DNA of 64,000 nt, taken from positions 127-64,126 of the forward strand of contig CALXUO010000049.1 in assembly GCA_944391695.1 (NCBI GenBank). Direction: 5' to 3'. Both the position numbers and the translations under genes were made by a program. This DNA comes from an uncultured Alphaproteobacteria bacterium (GTDB taxonomy: Bacteria; Pseudomonadota; Alphaproteobacteria; RF32; CAG-239). Below, piece after piece: positions 1,299-55,568 of the stretch. The first letter of the stretch is position 1. Each line of letters opens with the position of its first letter. Under the pieces are notes generated by a model. That model was not told the DNA's origin. It worked only from the letters and a program-made list of their open reading frames with translations, and did not search any database.

Positions 1299-2027
1299 TT
1301 ATCTACCATCCAACTTGTCATAAAAATCCTCCCATATTTTGTAGGGAGTACTTTGCGTTGTTCCCATGAAAGAATATGGAGAATATCTTATATTTGCGTA
1401 TTTTTCTCCAAACTCTTCCACCGTTGCTACCGGAATGTTTGCGACCTTCTTAAACCTTTTTCCTTTATACTCGCATACAGAATATGTTTTTCCGTCTTCC
1501 GAAAAAAGATATTTGTCTGTCCAGGTTTTGATGATCGTAATTTTTTTATATTTCGGCGGAACAATGTCATTATACCCAAACAGGCCATCTTTTTCAAAAA
1601 TATATCCGCCAATCGCCGGATATACTTCATCAAACGGCTCATATCCGTTTGTTTTGCCAAAGACGGTTTTTTTACCGTTTTCGTCGGTCACAATTTTGAT
1701 ATAACTGAGACCGGTAAAAGCAAATTCTATCCGAGAACCTGAGGCCATCTCGCGTAACGGCGGGTTTTCTTCACCGCGTAAGTTAAATAACGTTTGCTTG
1801 TCTGGCTTGTAGGCGATGAACCAATTGTCATTGTATGAACCTATGATATTTGAAATAGAATCATACTCTATCGGCAAAGCCTCTCTGTAATTTATCTCTA
1901 CGCCGTAAAGACCTTTCCATTTGTTATGCAGGAGCGTCATGCTCTCGTTTACAGGTATTCGCTCGATTCGCGTACATGACACGCTTGCGATACAACAAAG
2001 CATCGCTAAGAATAAAATTTTTTTCAT
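1299..2027 (-). CDS. putative lipoprotein, function unknown
   Basis: 242-aa ORF. The N-terminus 'MKKILFLAMLCCIASVSC' is a signal peptide with a lipobox-like SVSC. 'EKDGLFGYNDIVPPKY' faintly recalls WG/KWG-type beta repeats. Confidence 0.5.
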   Translation of the reverse strand: MKKILFLAMLCCIASVSCTRIERIPVNESMTLLHNKWKGLYGVEINYREALPIEYDSISNIIGSYNDNWFIAYKPDKQTLFNLRGEENPPLREMASGSRIEFAFTGLSYIKIVTDENGKKTVFGKTNGYEPFDEVYPAIGGYIFEKDGLFGYNDIVPPKYKKITIIKTWTDKYLFSEDGKTYSVCEYKGKRFKKVANIPVATVEEFGEKYANIRYSPYSFMGTTQSTPYKIWEDFYDKLDGR

Positions 2028-2096
2028 ATAATATGTGTTTAATTGGTTTTTCGTTTCGTTATTAACACATTTTGTCTATTAAATCAACAAAAATTA

Positions 2097-4625
2097 TTAG
2101 TGGAAACTCCAACCCATTTCTGCTTTGCCCATCTCATTGCCTTTGCCGACATGGTAGGCATAACAAGCTTCTGCCTCTTCTTTTGAAAACATACCTTGAG
2201 CTATTTCTCTTGGATCTAAACCATGCTCAAGAGCATCGCGATACCATTTGGTATAGCCATAGGCCACCTTGCTCTTCTTTACCTTGCCGTCAGCGTCTTT
2301 TTCGCGTTTTGATGCGATATCAGCAAATTTATTGAGATTTTTAACTTGTTCTCTATCAATACGGAATTTTTCCAGCTTGTTATGAATTCCATCAGATGTA
2401 AAGATCGTAACTTTGCCTTTGGCCGATACGGTGGTTATTGAACCTTTGACAATATTGTTATTGCTATCAACTTCTATCTTTTCAAAAATTACTTCACCTT
2501 TGTTGGTGGTTTTCTTTATCTCGACATAGCCGGCTTCATAATCGCAAGCTATTACTTCTTGCGAGATTATTCGTCCTTTGCGGTTGTTGGCATTGATACG
2601 ATTCTTGTTTATTTTTTGGGCGACAGCGCTAAACGTAGATTCTTTTTGCTTATCCGTCATGCCTTTGGTCATGTTATCCAATTCTTGTTTTCTGAATTCC
2701 CCTGTTGGATTGGTTACCAGCCTATCTGCTGTCAAGGTATTGGCTTTTACTTTTGTCTCACCAACTTGGTTGCCTTTTTCATCATATCTTCGGGTTATGG
2801 TGAAATGTTGAGAACGCTCAACCTCTACTCTTGAGCCGTCTTTGCTGTGTTTTATATTGGTAACAACCCCATTTTCTTGTTTGACTTCGGATACCTTGCG
2901 ACCTTTTTTCATGGTAACAACTGAAGTGGTGTTGCCTTCGACATTGGTGATTACGGTTTTGCGTTTGTTGCTTTGAACGTCTGTTACCTGACCATTCTTA
3001 TTAGCTTTGGTTTGGTCGGCAGTTGACATTACCTGTCCTTGTCTACCCGAATTTGATGCATTATTGTTAATTGCTCTTTCTCGTGCATTATTGACAAATT
3101 CTTCCGCCTTGCTTCTGGTAATGCGTCTTATTCCGCGGGCCGCACCCTTAAAGGTCTCTTTGGTGGCATAACCGACTCCCTTTAAGGCTTTTGTTGCAAG
3201 CGGCTTACTTGCTTTAAGCGCCATACCTTTGGCGGTTGAGGCGGCCATGGTACCTATTGACGAACCAATTGATGTACTGCTCATTGATGATGCAAACTCA
3301 TTGGCAAATTCTTTGGCCATATTCATAACCGACCAGGCCAAAATGAATATAAATACAAGTTTGAGGAATGGAAATGTAAACCAACCAAACTGTTTTAGTA
3401 TTGCATCAAAAGCTGTATCACCTGCCGAACTGGCCAGAAACATGCTATCAAAATTAACCCCTGCCGCTGTTATGTTGCCGGCACCTTCTGTTACAGCGGA
3501 TTTAATTGTTCCCAAAAGAATCAGCACCACTATTGTTATGAACAAAAAGGCAAACATTGAATTGAGGAATGTTTCCCAAACTTTTTTGCAATATTGACGC
3601 GTGGATTTGAAGGCAAAGCAGCCGACTGCAAACGGCAATAATGCGCCGGCAACGCCTAGTTGTAAAACCGCATCAACCATAAGGAATGGAACACCTATGA
3701 TTAAAAGCATTGAAAATGCCCATAATGCCAGGCCGGTGAGCAAATAACTAAACTTGGGGATAAATAGAAAGCCCTCTTTCCACGATTGGCACATAAACGA
3801 GCTTCCTAATGCTTTGAATTTGCGTACATAATTTTCCATCATGGTCATGGTGTTGACTATGCTTATTCCCATCTCAGCGGGCAAACCGTTGGATTCATAT
3901 TTAACACCGCTGGTATCAACTTTGACAACTGCCTCATCTCCTTGAGGACAACTGCCGTTTTCGCAACTGCTAAACATTGTATCGGCCAGAGAAAGCCCCG
4001 TTTGATAGATGGGATTAACAAAAGTATTGAAAAATTTGACCACGCCGGTACTGAGGATGAAAAAGGCCAAAACAACTATAAATCCTTGAGTTATTATGGA
4101 TTGTATTAGGTCTTTGAGATCTCTGGTTTCGATTGAGGCAACAAAAGCCAAAATCTGAATGGCCAGCCATACACCAAACGCAACTATAACCACTTTGGCA
4201 ACCGAGGAAGAAAAAGCGCTGACCGCCGTGGCTGTAATGGTGCTTACGGTATTAAAGACAACAATAAACAACGGACAAAGCAAACATTGATCGGTGCTTT
4301 CATATTTGCAGTAGGGCGCACAAGCGTTGTCTGAATCGGTGCATTTTAATCTTTGGAAATATTTTTCTAAAGATTCGTTGAGAATTTGTTTACTGTTTCC
4401 TCCGGGATTAAGAGCTTCTGTAATTGCAAGATCTCTGTCTTGAATTTGTTGTAGCTGGCTCGGGCTTAAATTATCTCCATATATTTTATTATAATTGTTT
4501 TTTATTTTCATATCTATTCCAAAGTCTTCTAAACCGTCAGCAAAAGAGCATGACGGTGCAAGAACCGCGCAAAAGATTATTACGGCTAAGGCATATATGA
4601 TGTTATGTAAACTCAAATTTCTCAT
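2097..4625 (-). CDS. virB6: VirB6/TrbL-like polytopic membrane protein with a hydrophilic C-terminal extension of about 360 aa
   Basis: 842 aa with a signal peptide. The 'CLLCPL' CxxC motif directly precedes the first of many TM helices ('VVIVAFGVWLAIQILAFVASIE'). The post-TM motif 'IGTMAASTAKGMALKASKP' is shared with the paralogs at 7902 and 53388. It is the last gene of four tandem paralogs. The long K/T/V-rich tail resembles the extended RvhB6 proteins of Rickettsiales. Confidence 0.65.
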   Translation of the reverse strand: MRNLSLHNIIYALAVIIFCAVLAPSCSFADGLEDFGIDMKIKNNYNKIYGDNLSPSQLQQIQDRDLAITEALNPGGNSKQILNESLEKYFQRLKCTDSDNACAPYCKYESTDQCLLCPLFIVVFNTVSTITATAVSAFSSSVAKVVIVAFGVWLAIQILAFVASIETRDLKDLIQSIITQGFIVVLAFFILSTGVVKFFNTFVNPIYQTGLSLADTMFSSCENGSCPQGDEAVVKVDTSGVKYESNGLPAEMGISIVNTMTMMENYVRKFKALGSSFMCQSWKEGFLFIPKFSYLLTGLALWAFSMLLIIGVPFLMVDAVLQLGVAGALLPFAVGCFAFKSTRQYCKKVWETFLNSMFAFLFITIVVLILLGTIKSAVTEGAGNITAAGVNFDSMFLASSAGDTAFDAILKQFGWFTFPFLKLVFIFILAWSVMNMAKEFANEFASSMSSTSIGSSIGTMAASTAKGMALKASKPLATKALKGVGYATKETFKGAARGIRRITRSKAEEFVNNARERAINNNASNSGRQGQVMSTADQTKANKNGQVTDVQSNKRKTVITNVEGNTTSVVTMKKGRKVSEVKQENGVVTNIKHSKDGSRVEVERSQHFTITRRYDEKGNQVGETKVKANTLTADRLVTNPTGEFRKQELDNMTKGMTDKQKESTFSAVAQKINKNRINANNRKGRIISQEVIACDYEAGYVEIKKTTNKGEVIFEKIEVDSNNNIVKGSITTVSAKGKVTIFTSDGIHNKLEKFRIDREQVKNLNKFADIASKREKDADGKVKKSKVAYGYTKWYRDALEHGLDPREIAQGMFSKEEAEACYAYHVGKGNEMGKAEMGWSFH

Positions 4626-4634
4626 CTTGCACCT

Positions 4635-6560
4635 CTACTTTCCGTTGCCAGAACTTTTGCCCTTGAACTTGCTAGCTATATTGCGGGCTGTTTGTTGGGG
4701 GTGTCTTATGGCTCGTCCCGTTCCCTGCATCAATTTTTTTATGCCTATGCCCGCCTGATTGGCAACGATATCTTTGGCCAGATTAGCTCCGGTTATGCTG
4801 GTTACCATCTTACGGGTATAGTCCGTCATCATTGTGGCCGTACTGTGCATCGGCGAAGAATCGCCAAACGCATTGTCGGGGAAGAATTTGTTAACCAGAT
4901 CAGAACTTGTCTGCTGGACTAGCTTATAAAAGTATATCAGCGCAAATACCATTGTTACAAATATCGGAGAGAACAGATAAATTGCATCGTTAATCTCATT
5001 ATTTACTTGTTCTTCCATTTCTTCGGTGGCGGTGCCAAGCGTTATACTGTCAAGCTTTTCGAACAGGGCATCCAGTCCGCCCACAGTTGCACTCTCCCCA
5101 AACAAACTTAGGCCAAAGCCCGTCATTAGGGCCAAGAAGGCAAACAGCGCCGCCGATTTGGCTATAATGCTGATGATGATAAATAATTTTCCTTGCGTCA
5201 TATTAAACGGCCATAGTCCCATCACAATCGGAAAGGCCAAAACCGCAAAGCCAATCTTGAACGAAATGTCCAAAAAGTAGTATCCTACAGCCCAAATCAA
5301 TAAAAACCCCAAACACCAAATAATGCAACCGCTGATCCAAATGAAAAAGTTCGGCATAGACATAAGGGTTACATTAAATGCTTTTATGTTTATGGCTCCG
5401 CCGTTTTCAAGACCGGCATAGCACATTACCGAATTGCCCAAAACCATTATATCCGACATTTTGTACGTTATCGAGGCGATTGCTCCCAGCATTGAATCCA
5501 TGACTGATTTCGGAAAAATTGACGGATAGCCGCTGTCTGAGATTGAGCTCTCAATTTCTTTTGCTATTTCTTCATAGGTGGTATATTTGACGCCGCCTGT
5601 ATCGGTTTCTTCGGTTTCACTATTATAATCCGTGGTGAAAGATTTGGTATCTCCGTGCCAGAACATTTGGCCGATGGTTGATCCGACACTCATTATCGGT
5701 GTAATAAGATATTGGCTTAAGACATTGTTGCTATATATAATAACCCAATAGGCCAGCATTACTTTGAACAAAAATTTGAGAAGTTCGTTTAATATGTTGC
5801 CCAGCTGGATTTGGGTGAATGACGAAACATTTTTTAATCCCCAAAAAACAAGCCAAATACCTGTTCCAACCCATAAAACAACCAAACCTGCCTTTTTGGT
5901 TACGCCCATGCCGTTGTCGGCGGCGCCTAAAAATGCCTCGGTAAGATTTCCTATTACCAAACAGGACCAACACCCTGCTTCATATTTGGCGCGAAGTTGT
6001 TCGGTGGTGGGACAGCCTTGTAACACTTTGGTTATAGCTTTACTAATTTTTCTTTCATAACGATCTGCTTTATTTTCTTTTCCCTGATCAGTATAATATT
6101 CAACATTATAAGCCTTTGCATCTCTGGCTGCTTGCGCCAATGTGTTTTGAAGTTTCGTATATTCTTCTTCGCTTATATAATTGTTCTTTTTCATCCTCTC
6201 AAGATATTTATCAGCATTGTTAATTGCACTAGTAATATCCTTTTTATTATTCGTTTGCGTTTGGGTAAATGCACTTACTTGTCTTAGATAAGATTTAAAA
6301 TTATCAGATGCACTTTTGTACTGTCCTGAATTTTCGGCTTTGTCGGCTTTAGCCAAAATACTTTCTATTCCAGCTAGATAATCTTTTTTAGACTGAGTAT
6401 CAGAATTCTGGGGTGTTGCGGTAGTTGATTCTTCTTTGTTTTGAGTATCTAGAGTTTGAGCAGAAGAAACTTGCACAAACATCAGTATTATGACGGTTGT
6501 GAGCAACCATAAGCAAACATCCTTAAATATTTTTTTATATATATTGATTCGCTTTGTCAT
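4635..6560 (-). CDS. virB6: VirB6/TrbL-like membrane protein with a coiled-coil N-terminal extension of about 190 aa
   Basis: 641 aa with signal peptide 'LLTTVIILMFVQVSSAQ'. The K/E/Q-rich N-terminal domain is followed by the 'CWSCLV' CxxC motif, 'GIWLVFWGLKNVSSFT', and multiple TM helices. It sits in tandem with the other paralogs. Confidence 0.6.
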   Translation of the reverse strand: MTKRINIYKKIFKDVCLWLLTTVIILMFVQVSSAQTLDTQNKEESTTATPQNSDTQSKKDYLAGIESILAKADKAENSGQYKSASDNFKSYLRQVSAFTQTQTNNKKDITSAINNADKYLERMKKNNYISEEEYTKLQNTLAQAARDAKAYNVEYYTDQGKENKADRYERKISKAITKVLQGCPTTEQLRAKYEAGCWSCLVIGNLTEAFLGAADNGMGVTKKAGLVVLWVGTGIWLVFWGLKNVSSFTQIQLGNILNELLKFLFKVMLAYWVIIYSNNVLSQYLITPIMSVGSTIGQMFWHGDTKSFTTDYNSETEETDTGGVKYTTYEEIAKEIESSISDSGYPSIFPKSVMDSMLGAIASITYKMSDIMVLGNSVMCYAGLENGGAINIKAFNVTLMSMPNFFIWISGCIIWCLGFLLIWAVGYYFLDISFKIGFAVLAFPIVMGLWPFNMTQGKLFIIISIIAKSAALFAFLALMTGFGLSLFGESATVGGLDALFEKLDSITLGTATEEMEEQVNNEINDAIYLFSPIFVTMVFALIYFYKLVQQTSSDLVNKFFPDNAFGDSSPMHSTATMMTDYTRKMVTSITGANLAKDIVANQAGIGIKKLMQGTGRAIRHPQQTARNIASKFKGKSSGNGK

Positions 6561-6578
6561 AATCGTTCTCCGCTACCC

Positions 6579-7883
6579 CTACTTTCGGCCAGCCCATTGA
6601 TGCATCTTGGCGCGAATCGCCGAACCCTTTTGCAAGGTTTTTCCTATGCCCTGAATCAATTTAATATTGGAGCTTGCCATGGCCGATGTGCCAAACGTTG
6701 CCAGCATACCCAAACCGTGCAAAATACCCGAGCCAATGCCTTGAACTGCTGCTTTTAGATTCTTTTGGAAGTTGGACGATAGTCCGGTTCCCAAAAGCGC
6801 CGAGGTCAGCTGCTGCGATACCCCCATTGAACCATAGATGAGAAAACCTATTAGCAATAAGCACAAGAAACCTAGGCTTATGTCTCGCATGCTGCCTTCC
6901 AAATCTGGCGGGTTGAATATTGCTTGATTTTGATTAATCAGACTTATCATCGCTACCAAAACCATGGCGACTATAACCGAAAAACACATCATAAACGCCG
7001 ATGAGGCCAAAACATGGGCAAAGCCTTTTTTCGTCCAGGCCCGTGTCGGTCCAAAAGCATAGGATACAACATATATCGGAAGCAATAAAATTATTATCCC
7101 CATCTGAAAAATGGTGTCAACCAAATAAAAACTGAAACCAATTTTTACTACCCAGAAGAATAAAAACAGTATTATGGCCATAATCTTGCTGGTTAGGTTG
7201 TTTTCGGTTTGGCGCATAACCGTGATTGCTATGTCCCCGCCGATAGTAAGATAGGCTGACAACATCTCGACCATGCACCTCATTGCTTCGCCGATTGATA
7301 CCGGAAAGCTTTTGGCGTCAACAAATGGTTTGCCGCTGATTGAGCAGCTCATTTTTACCCCTTCGACTACAACATTAGTGCCAAAAACCTTGAAATCTGT
7401 CTGCTCTGCCGGGGTGAATGACGCATTTAATATCCTTATGCCTAACTCTAAAAAGGCATAGTAAATCGGGAAAATAAACGTGTTTATAACATATATAAGT
7501 CCTTCGGAAGAAGATGCCAACAGCCCGCAGAACAGGCAAAGCGCCGCTTTGCGCAAAATCTCGTTCCAGACTTCTCCGGGGTTGGTCTCGGTGACCGAAC
7601 TTACAAATTTGAGCAACCTTAGCGCCAGCCATATCGAAAAACCAACCATCATTATCGGCATGGCCGCTTGAGTTAGTTGCCCGTGCATCATCATAACGTT
7701 ATCGCCTACGCTGTTATATATCAATACCAATATTTTGCAACTCAAACACTCTTTATCATTGGTGTCGACACCTTCTATAACTATGGAGTCTTTGTTGTCC
7801 GAACAAGCACCAAGCATTAAAACCACTATTGCAATTATAAGTAGTTTTGAAAAAATTCGGGATATGTCGTTCCAATGTTTCAT
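6579..7883 (-). CDS. virB6: VirB6/TrbL-like membrane protein (core-only paralog, possible lipoprotein signal)
   Basis: 434 aa. The N-terminus 'LLIIAIVVLMLGAC' has a lipobox-like LGAC. The 'CLSCKI' CxxC motif is followed by 'FSIWLALRLLKFVSSVT' and at least 6 hydrophobic helices. There are no long extensions. Confidence 0.65.
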   Translation of the reverse strand: MKHWNDISRIFSKLLIIAIVVLMLGACSDNKDSIVIEGVDTNDKECLSCKILVLIYNSVGDNVMMMHGQLTQAAMPIMMVGFSIWLALRLLKFVSSVTETNPGEVWNEILRKAALCLFCGLLASSSEGLIYVINTFIFPIYYAFLELGIRILNASFTPAEQTDFKVFGTNVVVEGVKMSCSISGKPFVDAKSFPVSIGEAMRCMVEMLSAYLTIGGDIAITVMRQTENNLTSKIMAIILFLFFWVVKIGFSFYLVDTIFQMGIIILLLPIYVVSYAFGPTRAWTKKGFAHVLASSAFMMCFSVIVAMVLVAMISLINQNQAIFNPPDLEGSMRDISLGFLCLLLIGFLIYGSMGVSQQLTSALLGTGLSSNFQKNLKAAVQGIGSGILHGLGMLATFGTSAMASSNIKLIQGIGKTLQKGSAIRAKMHQWAGRK

Positions 7884-7901
7884 TGCTATATCCTTATCAT
7901 T

Positions 7902-10253
7902 TTAATCCATCTCATCAAGTTTCTTTCTGTCAATACGCGGACCAGATGGCTTGTTTGTTTTGTCCTTTTGCGGGCTTGTGCCTTGATCTAAAGGTTGTTG
8001 CGGCGAATCGCCCCTTGTTTGTTGCTCCTGATTGGTATCAGGTGTTGTTCTGTCTTGCGGCTTATTATTTTGCTCATCTTGCGGCAAACTGCCCCTTGCT
8101 TGCTGCTCCTGATTGGTATCAGGTGTTGTTCTGTCTTGCGGCTTGTTATTGTTTTGCTCATTTTGCGGCAAAGTTTTGCCGGGTTCTCTAGAGTTTAGGA
8201 CATTGTCTTTACGACCAATGGTTGCTTTTTTGTTTTGCTCCGTATTAAGCGGTTTGCCGGTTTTGTTGCCTTTGCCGACAACGGCTCTGTTGGCAGGATT
8301 TTGAGCCGATGCTTCGTTTCTTGCTACCGCTCCTGCTTTTCTGCCGGAATCTGAAGCCCTGGAAATTGCATCATCTATCTTGTTGTAGGCCCATCTCCTT
8401 ACCGGACGCATAGTAATGATATTGCCAACCATTCTTGTTCCTTTGATTGCTTTGTCTTCTGCCCAATTGCCAACTGCTTCTCTGGTCGGCGCTGTAGCTT
8501 TTTTGGCCACTCCTTTGATGGCCGAGGCTCCCATAGTGGCCAAAGACGGAGCAGAGGCTTTCATACCACCACTGGAGAAGCGATTAACCAACTCAGATAC
8601 TCGGGCAAGCAGCAAAAAGCCTAAGATATTGGCAAACAGAAATACCAAAAATCCTACGCTTAGGACATTTACCATAATCCTTAGCTTTTCGGTATCAATA
8701 TTGTCTATTGCCTGAACCAGCTCATAAAGACCACCACCCGAAATTGTTTGCTGTGAGGTCTCAATCTCGGTATTGAGCTCAACCGCCTTGCTTATAAGGC
8801 TTATGCTGATTTTTACAACCAATCCTATCATCATAAAGGTGAAAATGCTGTTTAGCAATATCTTAAAACCGGTCGAGGTATATTTTGAAGTAATCTTGAA
8901 CGGCCAACTGGCAATAAGAAACGGCAACAATGCGCCAACAACTCCGAGTTGAACCACCGCATCGAGTATGTAAAATATAAACGCCAGACAAGACAAGAAC
9001 CCAAAAAGCGAGAAGAATAGGCCGTAGATAACACAACCAAAACCAAGACCAATTTCCCATCCATTCTCTCCGAATATAAGTAAAATATATCTCCAGCCCA
9101 AACAGTTCAAACCGCTGCCAATGGCTTGCAATAATGAATAGTTAAGATTGATGTTGTAGGCCAAATTTTCTAAGCTGGAATAGGTAAAAATATTGTAATA
9201 GTTGTTGTCTAGGTTGCGCGCATAATCAAGAGGTAAATTCTCGCCCAAACCCTGTAATGATGCTACGCTCAAATTGCCTATCTCAAAACGCTTTTCAACC
9301 GATGTGCCGCTGGCAAAACTTAAACCAAACTCCAATCCCGCATTTAACAGCGGATTTATTATAAAAGTGAAAACATCATCGTAATAAAGCAACAAGAAAA
9401 AGGCGATTATAAATTTGTAGCTTTGTTTAAGCATTTCGGTAATGTATTTGGCCGCATCTTGACTGGTCATTGAGCTTACAAAAACAAAAGTTTTCATCGC
9501 CATCCATATCGCCATGCCCACCGCTATGACAATTGCGAATCCTGAGGCTAATGCGTTTCTTGAAATTGCGGCCACACTGTCGGCTGTTTTGAAGATAACT
9601 CCTATCAGCGAACAGAATCGACATTTGCTGTCGTTATATACCCTGACCGGAATAACATCACATCCACGCTCTTTGTCGTTGCCGCTGCGAATTATTATCT
9701 CGTTACCTACTGTCTTTGCACAATATTGCACCGTTTCACCAGTTGGTTCTTGGGCTGTATAACAGGTTTTATCTAGTTCATAAGATTTGCTTGAGGTGTT
9801 TCCTCCTTCTTTTGCGGTGACTGTACTTATGCTTCCTGATCCTCCTTCAATTTCGGACCAACCTTGAGATGTCATTGTAGCTACTTCATCTTTGGGAACA
9901 CAAATATATTCAATGCGCACGGTGGTGGCTGCTTTGCCGCGGTTAAGTATTGTATTGATGATGGTTCGCCCCGCGGATAAATTACCTTTTGATAAACACT
10001 TTGAGGTGGCAAGATTGCAGATTTCCGTGCCGCACTGGACTATGTTGGTGTTTTTCCACCCTTCCTTTTGCCCATAGTCCGATACAAACTGGCTGTAGCC
10101 TTCGGCTGTGGCGTTTTCTTGCATAAACTCCCAGGGATCTTGATTTAGCCTGACAATTTCGTCAGTTGAAAAAGCGACAGAAACCGGCAGACAAATGCTT
10201 AGTAACAGTCCGAAAAACAAAAAAGCAAATATTTTACTCGTCGCTTTTGTCAT
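7902..10253 (-). CDS. virB6: VirB6/TrbL-like membrane protein with a Cys-rich N-terminal ectodomain and a repeat-bearing P/Q/N-rich C-terminal tail
   Basis: 783 aa with a signal peptide. The N-terminal ectodomain is about 210 aa and Cys-rich ('VQCGTEICNLATSKC...KCRFCSL'), and it is alignable by eye to the N-terminus of the ORF at 53388. This is followed by 'MAIWMAMKTFVFVSSMT', many TM helices, and 'LATMGASAIKGVAKKATAPT'. The tail carries two 'PQDEQNNKPQDRTTPDTNQEQQ' units. Confidence 0.65.
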   Translation of the reverse strand: MTKATSKIFAFLFFGLLLSICLPVSVAFSTDEIVRLNQDPWEFMQENATAEGYSQFVSDYGQKEGWKNTNIVQCGTEICNLATSKCLSKGNLSAGRTIINTILNRGKAATTVRIEYICVPKDEVATMTSQGWSEIEGGSGSISTVTAKEGGNTSSKSYELDKTCYTAQEPTGETVQYCAKTVGNEIIIRSGNDKERGCDVIPVRVYNDSKCRFCSLIGVIFKTADSVAAISRNALASGFAIVIAVGMAIWMAMKTFVFVSSMTSQDAAKYITEMLKQSYKFIIAFFLLLYYDDVFTFIINPLLNAGLEFGLSFASGTSVEKRFEIGNLSVASLQGLGENLPLDYARNLDNNYYNIFTYSSLENLAYNINLNYSLLQAIGSGLNCLGWRYILLIFGENGWEIGLGFGCVIYGLFFSLFGFLSCLAFIFYILDAVVQLGVVGALLPFLIASWPFKITSKYTSTGFKILLNSIFTFMMIGLVVKISISLISKAVELNTEIETSQQTISGGGLYELVQAIDNIDTEKLRIMVNVLSVGFLVFLFANILGFLLLARVSELVNRFSSGGMKASAPSLATMGASAIKGVAKKATAPTREAVGNWAEDKAIKGTRMVGNIITMRPVRRWAYNKIDDAISRASDSGRKAGAVARNEASAQNPANRAVVGKGNKTGKPLNTEQNKKATIGRKDNVLNSREPGKTLPQNEQNNNKPQDRTTPDTNQEQQARGSLPQDEQNNKPQDRTTPDTNQEQQTRGDSPQQPLDQGTSPQKDKTNKPSGPRIDRKKLDEMD
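8010..8174 (-). repeat. in-frame tandem duplication (81/84 bp units) in the VirB6-like C-terminal tail
   Basis: 'gccccttg.ttg.tgctcctgattggtatcaggtgttgttctgtcttgcggctt' occurs at 8010 and again at 8091 with few mismatches. It encodes units of 27-28 aa. Confidence 0.8.
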
Positions 10254-10434
10254 CCTCTCTATCCTTCTTAAAAGGATTGCCTAAAATAATCCCTGCCGCC
10301 GATAATGCCAAAATAAGCAAAACTACTGCTATGTAATATACTGCCTTATCCGCCAAAAACGCAAATAAATCAATGCTGTAGGCTATAATAAGAAGTATTA
10401 ATATTATAAACGTCCCAAGCCATGCTTTTGCCAT
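10234..10434 (-). CDS. small two-TM membrane protein, first gene of the virB6 operon
   Basis: 66 aa: 'WLGTFIILILLIIAYSIDLFAFL' and 'YYIAVVLLILALSAAGIILG' followed by an acidic tail. Its 3' end overlaps the next gene's start by 20 nt. I recognise no family. Confidence 0.45.
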   Translation of the reverse strand: MAKAWLGTFIILILLIIAYSIDLFAFLADKAVYYIAVVLLILALSAAGIILGNPFKKDREDDKSDE

Positions 10435-10467
10435 TTTGAAATTATCCTCCTTTGATACTTATTCTAT

Positions 10468-10565
10468 CATAACATATAAATTACTTATAAAGTGTTACAG
10501 TTTTTTGATTTTTTTATAAAACGCCAAAAAAAATATCGCTTAACCTGTTTTTGTACACAAATTGT
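10468..10565. promoter_or_regulatory. conserved promoter/operator blocks in the divergent region between the virB6 operon and the XRE gene
   Basis: The stretch 10471-10521 (aacatataaattacttataaagtgttacagttttttgatttttttataaaa) recurs at 55393-55442 with 2 substitutions and a 1-nt indel. 'gtacacaaattgt' (10553-10565) matches half of the palindrome at 55486-55503. Confidence 0.55.
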
Positions 10566-10656
10566 CTTTTTTTGTACTATTTTCTTGATTAATCCGCCCC
10601 TTGTATTAATATCATAGGCAAAATATACTTAACTTTAATTTTTGAGGTAAGAAATC

Positions 10657-11628
10657 ATGGAAGAAATTATTTTCCCCAACCAGATACGTATGTACCGCCG
10701 CTTGAGAGGGCGCTCCATGCAAGAGCTGGCCGATCATCTCGGTGTCTCCTTGTCTGCCATATCCAAAATTGAAAAAGGATATCGCCGCGTTGATCAGGAA
10801 CAGTTGGTCAGGGTGGCTGAATTTCTTGATTGCCCTCTACAAGAGTTGTTCGTAAATGAGCAAAACTCCCAACAGGAAATCGTCTTGGCTTGGCGCAGAG
10901 AGCAAGAACGCCGAAATAAAATTAATGAAAAAAGCGGTTTGAAAACTTTGGGTGCCGGGTTGCGGCAAATCCGCAATGAAAAAAACCTTACCTTGATTGA
11001 AGTGGCCGAAAGTGCCGATATGACCTTGTCGGTTTATCACAGAATCGAGATGGGGCAACGCGAGGTTTCCGACAAAGAGATGAAAAATATTGCCAAAGCT
11101 CTTAAATTGCCCGTCGATGAGCTCAAAGCTCAGATTAAAGATTTGGATGAGAAAGGTTTCTTGGAAGAAATTATTCAACGTAATGATGCTAAATATAAAT
11201 TGTTGTCTACTCCCCGAGGTGCTATTGCTTCTTTTGCCGGAATAAATATGGAAAATAATCAGATTTCCGTTTTCGGAACTGCCGGCAAAAACGGCGATGT
11301 AATTATTGATCCGGAAGAGGAAGTTAAGAAAGTTCCTTGCCCTACATCTCTTATAAATAAAAAAGATGCCTATGCGGTTAATCTTTGTACCCGCAGATTA
11401 GGAAATTTGTTGCCGGCCAGAGCTATATTGTTTGTTGATCCTCAGGAGCCTGTCAGCGTAGGAGATATTGCCGTTTACTATTCTTCCGAGGAAGAGGCTA
11501 AGATATTGTCCGTCAGAGAAGATGATATGGGGCAGCTTTATGGTGTTCGTTGGAATCCTGATGAAAAAATAAATTTGAGCGATAATGATTTGCAAAAAGT
11601 TCACCGCGTGGTCTTTATTAGTTTGTAA
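10657..11628 (+). CDS. XRE-family transcriptional regulator with two HTH domains and a LexA/CI-like C-terminal beta domain
   Basis: 323 aa. HTH 1 is 'IRMYRRLRGRSMQELADHLGVSLSAISKIEKGYRRV'. HTH 2 is 'LRQIRNEKNLTLIEVAESADMTLSVYHRIEMGQREV'. The C-terminus 'ARAILFVDPQEPVSVGDIAVYY...VHRVVFI' has the spacing of an S24-like fold but lacks a G-D-S-M type catalytic Ser motif. A GAGGTAA RBS lies upstream and a terminator follows. Confidence 0.7.
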   Translation: MEEIIFPNQIRMYRRLRGRSMQELADHLGVSLSAISKIEKGYRRVDQEQLVRVAEFLDCPLQELFVNEQNSQQEIVLAWRREQERRNKINEKSGLKTLGAGLRQIRNEKNLTLIEVAESADMTLSVYHRIEMGQREVSDKEMKNIAKALKLPVDELKAQIKDLDEKGFLEEIIQRNDAKYKLLSTPRGAIASFAGINMENNQISVFGTAGKNGDVIIDPEEEVKKVPCPTSLINKKDAYAVNLCTRRLGNLLPARAILFVDPQEPVSVGDIAVYYSSEEEAKILSVREDDMGQLYGVRWNPDEKINLSDNDLQKVHRVVFISL

Positions 11629-53387: not shown

Positions 53388-55340
53388 TTATCCTTTTGGC
53401 TTGCGATAGACACTATGTACTTTTTTGGCGGCCGCCCGCGGTGCGCCGGTAACTCTTTTGACAGCCGCCCCAACTTTGCCGCGAAATGATTTGTCTCGCC
53501 AGGCCTTGTTTTCTTGATCGGCACCACCGATTGCTTTGCCGGCAAGCTGACCCAAACCGGCAACCGGAGCAGATACAATACCAACAATTCCTCCGGCGGC
53601 GTGATATTGATCGGCCAACGCTTTGCCGGTAGGAGCCGAGGCCTTTTTGGCCAGACCTTTGATTGTTGATGCCCCCATGGTACCAATTCTGCCGGCAAGA
53701 CCTCCTTTGAAACCACCCGATGATAGGTTTGAGGCCAAAGGTGATACTTGGGCAACAAATTTAAATCCTAATAAACAAGAGAAAATCAGCAGCATAAATC
53801 CCATGCCTCCGATATCAGACGCCTCTTTCAGCTCGGCAACATTTTGGTTGTTAATGGCTTCTTCTATGCCGCTTAAACCTGCATTTACAGCTGCTCTTAA
53901 TCCGCCCCCGTCTTGAGAGGATTGCTGGTTTTGTGAATAGGCAAGCGATTCATTAACCAGATTGATGCAAACGCTGACAACAAATCCGGTGAAAAATAGG
54001 ACAAAAAACGTATTAAGCAACATTTTGAAACCGGTAGAGGCATATTGCGCCGTGGCTTTTAGCGGCCAGCCGGCTATCATAAATGGCAACATGGCGCCGA
54101 TAACCGCCAGTTGGAGCAGACCGTCCACAAAGTAAAAAGCAAACGAAATTGTCAACAAAAAGCCAAAGACTGCCAAAATACCCCCTAAAAGCATCATTGA
54201 CATTCCGTCTTTCATTTGCGTTTTATCAATTGTTATTATTTCGTGCCCCCCGACACAGAACAGCGTTGTACCGATGGCCTGCATTCGGGCAAGCTGCATT
54301 TGCAACGATGCCAAATATATTTCTATGTGTGTGTATAAAGATGTGCTGCTTTTGCTGCCATCGCTTTTGATTGTGGATGAGACAGGCAAGTTAAAATATT
54401 GATTGGGAGTGTTTATCTCGGTAGGCGTCCAATTTTGAGGCTGAGGCGTAGGCGTGCTTTGAATATAGGTTCCCATTTGCAAGCCGCCCTCTAACAACGG
54501 AATTATGAAATATCTGAAAATATCGTTGGAATATGATAACAGCAGAAAAGCAACCATAACCTTAAAACCTTGTTTTATGATTGCTGACAAAAATTTGGGG
54601 GCATCTTGTTTGGTCATGGGGAAAACCTGTTGCAGAGCAAGAACGGCCAGCCATACGGCAAAAACCACCACCATTACAATCTGAAAACTCTTGGAAAAAG
54701 CACTAAAAGATGTTGTGGTAACATCATTGGCGGCTCCAAAAATCAGCGCGGCCAACGGACAGAAAAAGCAGCTTTGCATATTATATAATTTTACCGGCAA
54801 AACCTCACAGCCTGCAAAACTTTCATTTTCCTTACCGTTGTTACCATATTGAATGGTAGGTTGTTCACCCAGAAATAAAATATATTTTTTTCCATCTGTG
54901 CCTGTCAGTTCACCCCTATTAACGGTTACATTTCCTTTGGTATCCATAGCGGTTGTATCAACGTTATGTTCTACTTTCCAGCAATTGATTCCTGATACGT
55001 TCCTTCTTTCTGTGCCTTTAGGATAACATCTGCCGACAGTTTTTGAGGCGGCTCCCCCAGAATAGCCTGTTCCGGCATCAATTATTTGACCACTTTCTCT
55101 GCACATCCAACATTCCTGCGTTTGTTTATCACAAAACTCATCGCCGCATTTCATAAGTGAGCTACCTTCATAATCTTTTTGAAGTATGCTCTCCCATTCA
55201 CTTAGCCCTTTTTCTCTAGCAAATTCGGCGGCTGACATGGGATTATAAAAGTTTTGGGCGGCGGCAATATTAAGACTGCATGCCCAAAATAGGCCTGTTA
55301 TTAAAAATAGAATTGATATGTTCTTTGCCTGCTTAAACAT
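53388..55340 (-). CDS. virB6: fifth VirB6/TrbL-like membrane protein (orphan paralog with a Cys-rich N-terminal ectodomain)
   Basis: 650 aa with a signal peptide. The N-terminal domain 'MKCGDEFCDKQTQECWMC...SCFFCPL' is colinear with that of the 7902..10253 product. 'FAVWLAVLALQQVFPMT', many TM helices, and 'IGTMGASTIKGLAKKASAPT' follow. Its stop abuts the xerD stop with 0 nt between them. Confidence 0.65.
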   Translation of the reverse strand: MFKQAKNISILFLITGLFWACSLNIAAAQNFYNPMSAAEFAREKGLSEWESILQKDYEGSSLMKCGDEFCDKQTQECWMCRESGQIIDAGTGYSGGAASKTVGRCYPKGTERRNVSGINCWKVEHNVDTTAMDTKGNVTVNRGELTGTDGKKYILFLGEQPTIQYGNNGKENESFAGCEVLPVKLYNMQSCFFCPLAALIFGAANDVTTTSFSAFSKSFQIVMVVVFAVWLAVLALQQVFPMTKQDAPKFLSAIIKQGFKVMVAFLLLSYSNDIFRYFIIPLLEGGLQMGTYIQSTPTPQPQNWTPTEINTPNQYFNLPVSSTIKSDGSKSSTSLYTHIEIYLASLQMQLARMQAIGTTLFCVGGHEIITIDKTQMKDGMSMMLLGGILAVFGFLLTISFAFYFVDGLLQLAVIGAMLPFMIAGWPLKATAQYASTGFKMLLNTFFVLFFTGFVVSVCINLVNESLAYSQNQQSSQDGGGLRAAVNAGLSGIEEAINNQNVAELKEASDIGGMGFMLLIFSCLLGFKFVAQVSPLASNLSSGGFKGGLAGRIGTMGASTIKGLAKKASAPTGKALADQYHAAGGIVGIVSAPVAGLGQLAGKAIGGADQENKAWRDKSFRGKVGAAVKRVTGAPRAAAKKVHSVYRKPKG

Positions 55341-55389
55341 GATGTTGGGCGCCTTACATGTTGGTCTTATGATTAATCAATAAAATTAT

Positions 55390-55503
55390 TGTAACACATA
55401 AATTACTTAAAAAGTGTTACAGTTTTTTGATTTTTTATAAAAAGACGGATTATGACGCATATTTAATCATAAAAATTTAAAAATCATACACAAATTTGTG
55501 TAT
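55390..55503. promoter_or_regulatory. conserved promoter/operator blocks in the divergent region between the orphan virB6 gene and the pilus cluster
   Basis: A perfect 8-bp inverted repeat TGTAACAC-N16-GTGTTACA spans 55390-55421. It lies inside the block of about 50 nt shared with 10471-10521. A perfect 18-bp palindrome ATACACAAATTTGTGTAT lies at 55486-55503. Confidence 0.55.
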
Positions 55504-55568
55504 ATTTTTTCGCGAGTCTTGCCAAGAGTCGCATTTTGATTTATCTAGGGTTTAGAGGGGTTTAATTT

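Follow-up and report, generated by a model that had tools for sequence, protein, structure and literature searches.

Background

Sigma-70 promoters of Escherichia coli that carry an extended -10 element (TGn) and lack a -35 hexamer depend on an UP element or on a class II activator. The virB promoter of Brucella reportedly contains an IHF site. The scattered virB/virD loci of Rickettsiales are reportedly controlled by one small regulator (PMC3518464, PMC9657007, PMC13410764), namely EcxR in Ehrlichia, wBmxR1/2 in Wolbachia and Tr1/ApxR in Anaplasma. Promoters activated by CtrA usually carry a single TTAA-N7-TTAA(C) site at the -35 position (PMC11264516). Our literature search found no publication on type IV secretion or its regulation in RF32 Alphaproteobacteria, of which the uncultured CAG-495 / 'Candidatus Scatocola' gut bacteria carry a large and unusual type IV secretion system (T4SS). 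Here we describe a 50-nt block (block 1) that heads VirB6-type genes in a stretch of 64,000 nt from such an organism (the window), and that we consider likely to be their shared promoter. The source genome comprises 1,374,449 bp in 64 contigs (41% G+C, 83% complete); this genome and all those with which it was compared are metagenome-assembled and their source organisms uncultured.

Two copies of one block in the genome

Direct reading and alignment revealed a 50-nt block common to positions 10465-10514 and 55387-55436 of the window, which a repeat finder returned as a two-copy family at 10465-10521 and 55387-55443. The copies and their parts are as follows:

10465..10514, minus strand: block 1, copy A (weight-matrix score 84.8; conservation edges sharp at both ends)
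10466..10474, minus strand: extended -10 of copy A, TGT TATGAT, with the TGnTAnnnT signature
10493..10509, minus strand: upstream core ATCAAAAAACTGTAACA of copy A, approximately -50 to -34, a putative activator site, near-invariant in 57 copies
55387..55436, minus strand: block 1, copy B, at the head of a stand-alone VirB6-like gene (weight-matrix score 78.2)
55388-55396, minus strand: extended -10 of copy B, TGT TACAAT
55415-55421, minus strand: TGTAACA of copy B

An earlier note on this DNA had placed both copies 5' of minus-strand VirB6-like genes, where they indeed lie, and had counted two substitutions and a 1-nt indel between 10471-10521 and 55393-55442, which our alignment confirmed, the indel being one T in a T-run. 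The A-tract of copy A extends past the upstream core to 10515. When intergenic regions were compared with the whole genome (blastn-short), the 45-nt core proved 95.6% identical between the copies (E = 1.7e-14), and the next-best matches in the whole genome were low-complexity words of 13–18 nt. A weight matrix built from 57 unique copies, scanned across the whole genome, gave copy A the maximum of 84.8 bits and copy B 78.2 bits, and returned no third site, the next-best score in the genome being -12.6. The block occurs exactly twice in the 1.37-Mb genome, far beyond chance. A generic dispersed repeat, which the earlier note had named as a refuting outcome, or a MITE is rejected by this genome-wide result (two sites only), by the copy number in related genomes (1–5 each) and by the fixed gene context among the relatives.

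Gene context and conservation among relatives

Four features of the window define the surroundings of the two copies:

10234..10434, minus strand: 66-aa ORF with two hydrophobic stretches, the first gene behind copy A
2097..10253, minus strand: four tandem VirB6/TrbL-like genes behind copy A (Pfam PF04610 and paralogue search)
53388..55340, minus strand: stand-alone VirB6-like gene, 650 aa, behind copy B (PF04610 E = 5.6e-4)
10657..11628, plus strand: gene of an XRE-family regulator, a candidate binder of the block (two HTH_3 stretches, Pfam E = 2.4e-29)

Copy A lies between the 66-aa ORF (minus) and the gene of the 323-aa XRE regulator (plus), and copy B between the 650-aa VirB6-like gene and a type IVb pilus cluster that contains TcpQ, a secretin, PilO and a T2SSE-family ATPase. 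In the tandem array the PF04610 matches are weak and were obtained for three of the four genes. The ATG of the 66-aa ORF is preceded at 11 nt by AAGGAGG, and homologues of this ORF (31–82% identity) occupy the same position in many genomes; orthologues of the 650-aa VirB6-like gene also sit behind the block in other genomes. A gene for a tyrosine recombinase (Xer-type) abuts the stand-alone virB6 gene, and the window further encodes virB2, virB4, two virB8, virB9 and virB11.

The copy-A intergenic region was searched against 40 relatives, the matching loci were fetched and every copy was oriented. The loci belong to uncultured gut Alphaproteobacteria, including 'Proteobacteria bacterium CAG:495' and 'Candidatus Scatocola'. 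All 24 genomes of the same genus that were searched possess the block (85–100% identity, 1–4 copies each), and among the 40 relatives one genome of another family has a weaker copy; across the order, BLAST detects the block in 84 of 151 genomes and in 16 of 20 genera. In the oriented copies the 50 nt are nearly constant, and similarity is lost immediately beyond them, at the first flanking base. Of the 47 copies examined, 42 read into a VirB6/TrbL-like gene or into the 66-aa operon-leader ORF, on the strand opposite to the plus strand of the window, and the listed (longest-ORF) gene start is then no more than 86 nt away from the edge of the block; the remaining five comprise two copies at contig edges, one contig-end duplicate and two copies before giant VirB2-domain genes. 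The giant proteins behind the block are homologues of the 1486-aa VirB2-domain protein of the window (43247-47707). At loci L035 and L052 a cassette of the block 1 type heads such a homologue, a coiled-coil protein of approximately 1000 aa or more that includes a VirB2 pilin domain.

In five genomes that were searched in full, each virB6 transcription unit found (one operon and one or two stand-alone genes per genome) adjoins a copy of the block. The orientation of the block is fixed and the gene on its opposite side varies, being the XRE gene, the first gene of the pilus cluster, a homologue of the 327-aa ORF (272-1255 in the window) or others. The majority gene order runs from the 327-aa-ORF homologue through block 1, the virB6 operon and block 2 (the promoter of the XRE gene, described below) to the XRE gene, with all parts pointing the same way. 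In this order the 327-aa-ORF homologue has its stop codon between 7 nt inside and 7 nt before the block, so that the cassette is essentially the entire upstream region. Relative to this order, the virB6 operon is inverted in its entirety, together with its promoter, here and in some related species (window 1299-10521 compared with L017, L057-L068 and L151-L165); the inverted segment runs from block 1 to a 242-aa ORF and carries the block along. The head-to-head layout of virB6 and XRE in the window is due to this inversion, and only 18 of 81 XRE loci have a block within 260 nt; a functional meaning of copy A facing the XRE gene, a position that the earlier note had pointed out, is not supported.

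Two further observations concern the assemblies of the relatives. More than 20 of them break just past the 327-aa-ORF homologue, with contig starts 1.2–1.7 kb from block 1, which suggests a repeated sequence there, e.g. an rRNA operon. In genome G127, recently duplicated copies of the block precede lipoprotein genes or no gene at all: positions 4000-8000 of its locus L149 (G127:C5:76000-85850) contain four tandem duplications of 127–181 nt, with block 1 and the first virB6 codons, interleaved with three paralogous genes in both orientations that encode proteins of approximately 300 aa with N-terminal hydrophobic leaders.

The block read as a promoter

The consensus of the 57 unique copies, read on the virB6 strand, is AAAAAATCAAAAAACTGTAACACTTTwTAAGTAATTTaTrTGnTAtrATA, and its information profile falls off sharply at either end. 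An extended -10 element, TGnTAnnnT, occupies the final nine positions; in it T-12, A-11 and T-7 are present in each of the 57 copies and TG (-15/-14), one base 5' of the -10 hexamer, in 56. The base between TG and the hexamer is free (T41, G8, C4, A4), and the hexamer occurs as TATGAT, TACAAT, TATAAT, TATTAT, TATCAT, TATACT, TAAAGT and TAATAT. A -35 hexamer 16–18 nt upstream is absent from the 57-copy profile, CACTTT standing in that place. As judged from the aligned copies, the conservation pattern is that of a textbook extended -10 promoter reading on the minus strand toward the VirB6-type genes. Scans for sigma-70 consensus promoters and for terminators made no call at the block, and the promoter scan misses it because it demands a -35 hexamer.

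Other promoter types were rejected on inspection of the aligned copies, in which the spacings and key bases of sigma-54, ECF, sigma-28 and MerR-type promoters misfit. A plus-strand promoter with TTGATT as its -35 was rejected as well, since no -10 is conserved 16–18 nt downstream. Co-regulation of the pilus operon, a possibility raised in the earlier note, is not supported: the plus-strand side of the block has a varying gene and lacks a conserved -10.

Two features are retained throughout 20 genera: the extended -10 and, at a distance of exactly 22 nt on the 5' side of the hexamer, a GTAAC. Matches to ATCAAAAAACTGTAACA in other genera extend over 22–23 nt with 100% identity; in other genera of the family the 18-nt spacer is rewritten, and the distance from ATCAAAAAACTGTAACA/TGTAACA to TGnTAnnnT is exactly 18 nt. 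In the most distant genera (XRE protein 60–73% identical) the syntenic operon head keeps GTAAC or GTAAT at equal distance, with TTAA at N7 before it, e.g. TTTAACCATATTGTAATA and TTTAAAATTATTGTAACA. The 22 bp between GTAAC and the hexamer fit no standard sigma-70 -35/-10 spacing, and an activator is therefore assumed. The near-invariant stretch from approximately -55 to -34 consists of two A6 tracts and ATCAAAAAACTGTAACA. We compared AAAAAACTG at approximately -47 to -39, and the second A6 at -55 to -50, with an UP element (A/T-rich tract at -60 to -40, proximal subsite AAAAAARNR); the invariance of the stretch is greater than an UP element requires.

Conservation pattern, orientation and gene context agree with the proposal, made in the earlier note, of a shared promoter for the dispersed VirB6-type genes. 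We consider it likely that block 1 is the promoter of the VirB6-type units, composed of a sigma-70 extended -10 and a predicted activator/UP site at -55 to -34. The extended -10 (TGT TATGAT in copy A, TGT TACAAT in copy B) would be the recognition element for RNA polymerase and its housekeeping sigma factor, and the stretch from -55 to -34 would act as an UP-like element and as the site of an activator that touches the polymerase in the class II manner. Transcription is predicted to start near 10459 and near 55381, with predicted leaders of approximately 25 nt and 40 nt that would carry the ribosome-binding sites. Because every VirB6-type unit, as well as a few giant VirB2-type genes elsewhere, carries the same cassette, the dispersed genes would be switched together.

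The palindrome, the XRE promoter and other explanations

The earlier note had also read a palindromic operator into the block. As a rival to the promoter reading, the block would mainly be an operator at which a dimer of the neighbouring XRE/CI-like repressor binds TGTAACAC-N16-GTGTTACA and shuts off both divergent genes. The XRE protein is indeed single-copy in 148 of 151 genomes of the order (60–100% identity), strongly conserved wherever the T4SS occurs, its gene adjoins the virB6 operon in all arrangements seen, and copy B has perfect 8-bp arms. However, the perfect palindrome is found in few copies only: the left arm reads CATAACAT or TATAACAT in most of them, so the dyad is not under selection. 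The second arm coincides with the extended -10, and its symmetry depends on a position that is free to vary, the n of TGnTA, for which the counts were given above. The arm centres are 24 bp apart, and the spacer between them is unconserved outside the closest genera and rewritten in other genera. Moreover, as noted above, the block is near a minority of XRE loci, and the XRE gene's own promoter has no copy of the dyad. Thus, we regard an operator as the main function of the block as unlikely.

That promoter also accounts for part of a further claim, namely that a second element is shared by the two regions some distance from the block. The relevant features are:

10550..10612, plus strand: block 2, promoter of the XRE gene (93–100% identical in 23 loci)
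10585-10590, plus strand: -35 of block 2, TTGATT, followed by a 16-nt spacer
10607-10612, plus strand: -10 of block 2, TAATAT
55486..55503, no strand assigned: perfect palindrome of 18 bp, ATACACAAATTTGTGTAT, between copy B and the pilus cluster; eight orthologous regions conserve it only in part

The second element is present at both regions, but it is not a shared part of the block. On the side of copy A it reads GTACACAAATTGT (10553-10565) and belongs to a separate, independently conserved promoter, as it is contained in the invariant upstream part of block 2, TTTGTACACAAATTGTCTTTTTTTGTACTATTTTC; on the side of copy B it is the palindrome ATACACAAATTTGTGTAT. TACACAAATT occurs three times in the window (0.22 expected) and six times in the genome; for a 10-mer shared between two AT-rich regions of 130 nt we roughly estimate p ~0.03, which is much weaker than the main block. 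In the alignment of upstream regions, block 2 precedes all 81 XRE genes examined, and in many genomes it lies approximately 9.7 kb from block 1. Block 2 includes two TTTGTAC repeats 21 nt apart in its approximately 35 invariant upstream nt, and in distant genera it is replaced by TTTTTGTCTTGCA. The pilus side has a conserved 21-bp near-palindrome of its own, GCGAGTCTTGCCAAGAGTCGC at 55512-55532, followed by ATTTTGATTTATCTAG (region 55486-55545); this part is nearly invariant in seven of the eight orthologous regions aligned and could be an operator or a leader hairpin.

A role of the block as RNA, either as a hairpin in the virB6 5' leader or as an intrinsic terminator on the plus strand (hairpin followed by GTTTTTTGATTTTTTT), appears very unlikely to us. 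The arms of copy B could pair, a T-run follows the hairpin on the plus strand, and two of the three differences in copy A would be, by our own reading, G-U wobbles on the minus-strand RNA. Nevertheless, conservation stops exactly at the -10 and does not continue downstream, the variable positions follow the promoter pattern rather than pairing, and the stem would have 8 AT-rich pairs around a 16-nt loop. As for the terminator, the divergent layouts have no plus-strand gene that ends upstream of the block, and the terminator scan found none.

It is highly improbable that the block serves DNA rearrangement, whether as a target of the Xer-type tyrosine recombinase or as a place of inversion or excision at the borders of the 45-kb T4SS region. 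The copies are direct repeats 44.9 kb apart that bracket most of the T4SS, the recombinase gene abuts the stand-alone virB6 gene, and species differ in the orientation of the virB6 operon; yet the breakpoints of that inversion fall outside the block and the inversion involves a single copy, the copies (1–4 in number) are always tied to a gene start, and the spacer is unconserved between genera. A dif/Xer site in particular was rejected, since our own inspection found no CATAA-N6-TTATG core and the spacer is unconserved. Finally, a neutral leftover of a recent virB6 duplication with its upstream DNA is scarcely credible, even though the VirB6 genes are paralogues and the recent segmental duplications in G127 did copy the block, and this reading can be regarded as effectively refuted by the conservation data: the proteins behind the copies are approximately 34% identical as against 95.6% for the block, and different genera retain these 50 nt between randomised flanks.

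Candidate regulators of the predicted promoter

For block 1 as an activated promoter we propose, tentatively, that the activator is possibly CtrA or another response regulator of the OmpR family. A ctrA gene is present in the genome (NF045991, 402.9 bits against a cut-off of 350) and in 56 of 61 genomes of the family, with 83–95% conservation. Five of the seven operon-head loci of divergent genera read TTAA-N7-GTAAC or GTAAT, close to the CtrA box of two TTAA half-sites with 11-bp phasing (TTAA-N7-TTAAC); one more has a GTAA and one a GTCAT half-site. The genus of the window has ATCA-N7-GTAAC, which matches the CtrA half-sites of TTAA-N7-TTAAC at 2/4 and 4/5 positions. If the hexamer is counted as -12 to -7, this CtrA-like site lies at approximately -51 to -36 and abuts the -35 position without covering it. 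TTAA-N7-TTAAC shows no genome-wide enrichment (21 observed, 36 expected). If the proposal is true, the assembly of VirB6 channel paralogues would be tied to the cell cycle of a gut commensal.

Two further observations were set aside as evidence. The likeness of block 1 to the region upstream of ctrA (AAAAAACTGTTAA) is approximately at chance level (4 observed, ~2.5 expected by our own estimate) and is not kept upstream of ctrA in 29 other genomes. The enrichment of [TG]TAAC-N19-TGnTAnnnT (16 observed, 6.4 expected) is not independent support, because it stems mostly from one near-identical promoter family before flagellin and other genes. Nine near-identical promoter-like cassettes of the form TTAACTTTTTATTTAC-N8-rTGnTAnnnT, followed by ACTCGTGCGG, were found in the genome (C22:5640, C23:21375, C43:14801, C61:8844, C24:1411, C42:14276, C56:5478, C25:30910 and C11:61068); three of them precede flagellin genes, and the offset of their TTAAC from the extended -10 equals that of GTAAC in block 1. 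Separately, the regions upstream of ctrA in 30 genomes (L171-L200) contain a palindrome of 16 bp conserved family-wide, GTTAATAATTATTAAC, and a TATGAT/TATTAT promoter whose -35 position is taken by GTTAACAAAT; the palindrome and GTTAACAAAT are probably CtrA autoregulation sites with N6 spacing.

It is also possible, at a slightly lower probability, that the activator is the conserved tandem-HTH XRE protein encoded nearby, whose phylogenetic distribution and constant vicinity to the virB6 operon were described above. Beyond its two HTH stretches this protein has approximately 170 C-terminal residues without any family match, and searches of PDB, NCBIfam and Pfam returned nothing for it beyond generic HTH matches that fell short of the family cut-offs. 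With its two HTH domains in a single chain it would be suited to an asymmetric site, ATCAA and TGTAACA being separated here by one turn of the helix. On the opposite strand, over its -35, the promoter of the XRE gene has ATCAAGAAAATAGTACA, and block 1 and this promoter are alike at 12 of 17 positions (ATCAA-N5-T..ACA), a likeness no better than p ~0.06 by our own rough estimate. If this candidate is the right one, it would resemble lambda CI, activating P(virB6) from approximately -45 and repressing its own promoter.

IHF is a candidate helper at the block. Of the 13 positions of the IHF consensus WATCAANNNNTTR, AATCAAAAAACTG matches 12; it is preceded by an A-tract, and the genome has three genes of the HU/IHF family. 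Binding of IHF by itself would leave the invariance of the N4 bases and of TGTAACA unaccounted for.

The cassette may be the target of a dedicated master switch of the T4SS, with CtrA or the tandem-HTH XRE protein as candidates, which we put forward as a speculative idea. It bears on one more element of the window:

48912..48931, minus strand: 20-nt element CTGTGAATTTTTTGTTACAG, as read on the minus strand, upstream of virB2; unchanged in all 12 genomes of the genus that were aligned

The octamer 'ctgtaaca', which the earlier note had regarded as a related half-site near virB2, is found at 48912 on the plus strand (five occurrences of this 8-mer in the window, 1.24 expected). It does fall within the invariant 20-nt element, but the full block is absent there according to the weight-matrix scan, and the orientation of the octamer relative to the gene is reversed in comparison with the block. 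A recognition half-site shared with the virB2 element is possible. The 20-nt CTGTGAATTTTTTGTTACAG sits within a conserved region of 165 nt; this region upstream of virB2 (48793-48959) is 74–91% conserved across the genus, and it also includes a TAAACA-N5-TTAACCA stretch and a 15-bp palindrome, TGGCAAATTTTGCCA, at 48840-48854. If there is a master switch, the CTGTAAC common to block 1 and the virB2-upstream element would define a small T4SS regulon.

Whichever protein acts at the block, the cassette is a marker for transcription units of the VirB6 type, and some of the VirB2 type, in metagenomes, and it predicts co-expression of the dispersed channel paralogues. It is also a ready 50-bp probe with which the regulator could be pulled out by DNA-affinity capture or DAP-seq.

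Comparison with known systems

Like the extended -10 promoters of E. coli, block 1 has TG one base before TAnnnT and no -35 at 16–18 bp. Like promoters that depend on an UP element or a class II activator, it has an A-rich tract at approximately -55 to -42 and a specific conserved site that abuts the -35 position. Unlike generic UP promoters, its approximately 38 nt upstream are almost letter-perfect across the genus. The most divergent genera resemble CtrA-activated promoters in reading TTAA-N7-GTAAC or GTAAT with an end at approximately -36, and ctrA is present; in contrast to such promoters, the genus of the window has ATCA as the 5' half-site and the site lies approximately 5 bp further upstream.

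As in Rickettsiales, we deal with an alphaproteobacterial T4SS whose multiple VirB6 paralogues are spread over several loci and need joint control. In the reports cited in the Background, the Rickettsiales systems are defined by protein-DNA binding, without a single letter-perfect cassette, whereas here it is the cis-element that is read from the DNA; furthermore, Rickettsiales are obligate intracellular bacteria and the bacteria studied here are gut commensals. The IHF-like match AATCAAAAAACTG upstream of the predicted T4SS promoter recalls the Brucella virB promoter. Measured against these systems, the block is, in our reading, a real regulatory signal of a familiar kind rather than a new mechanism.
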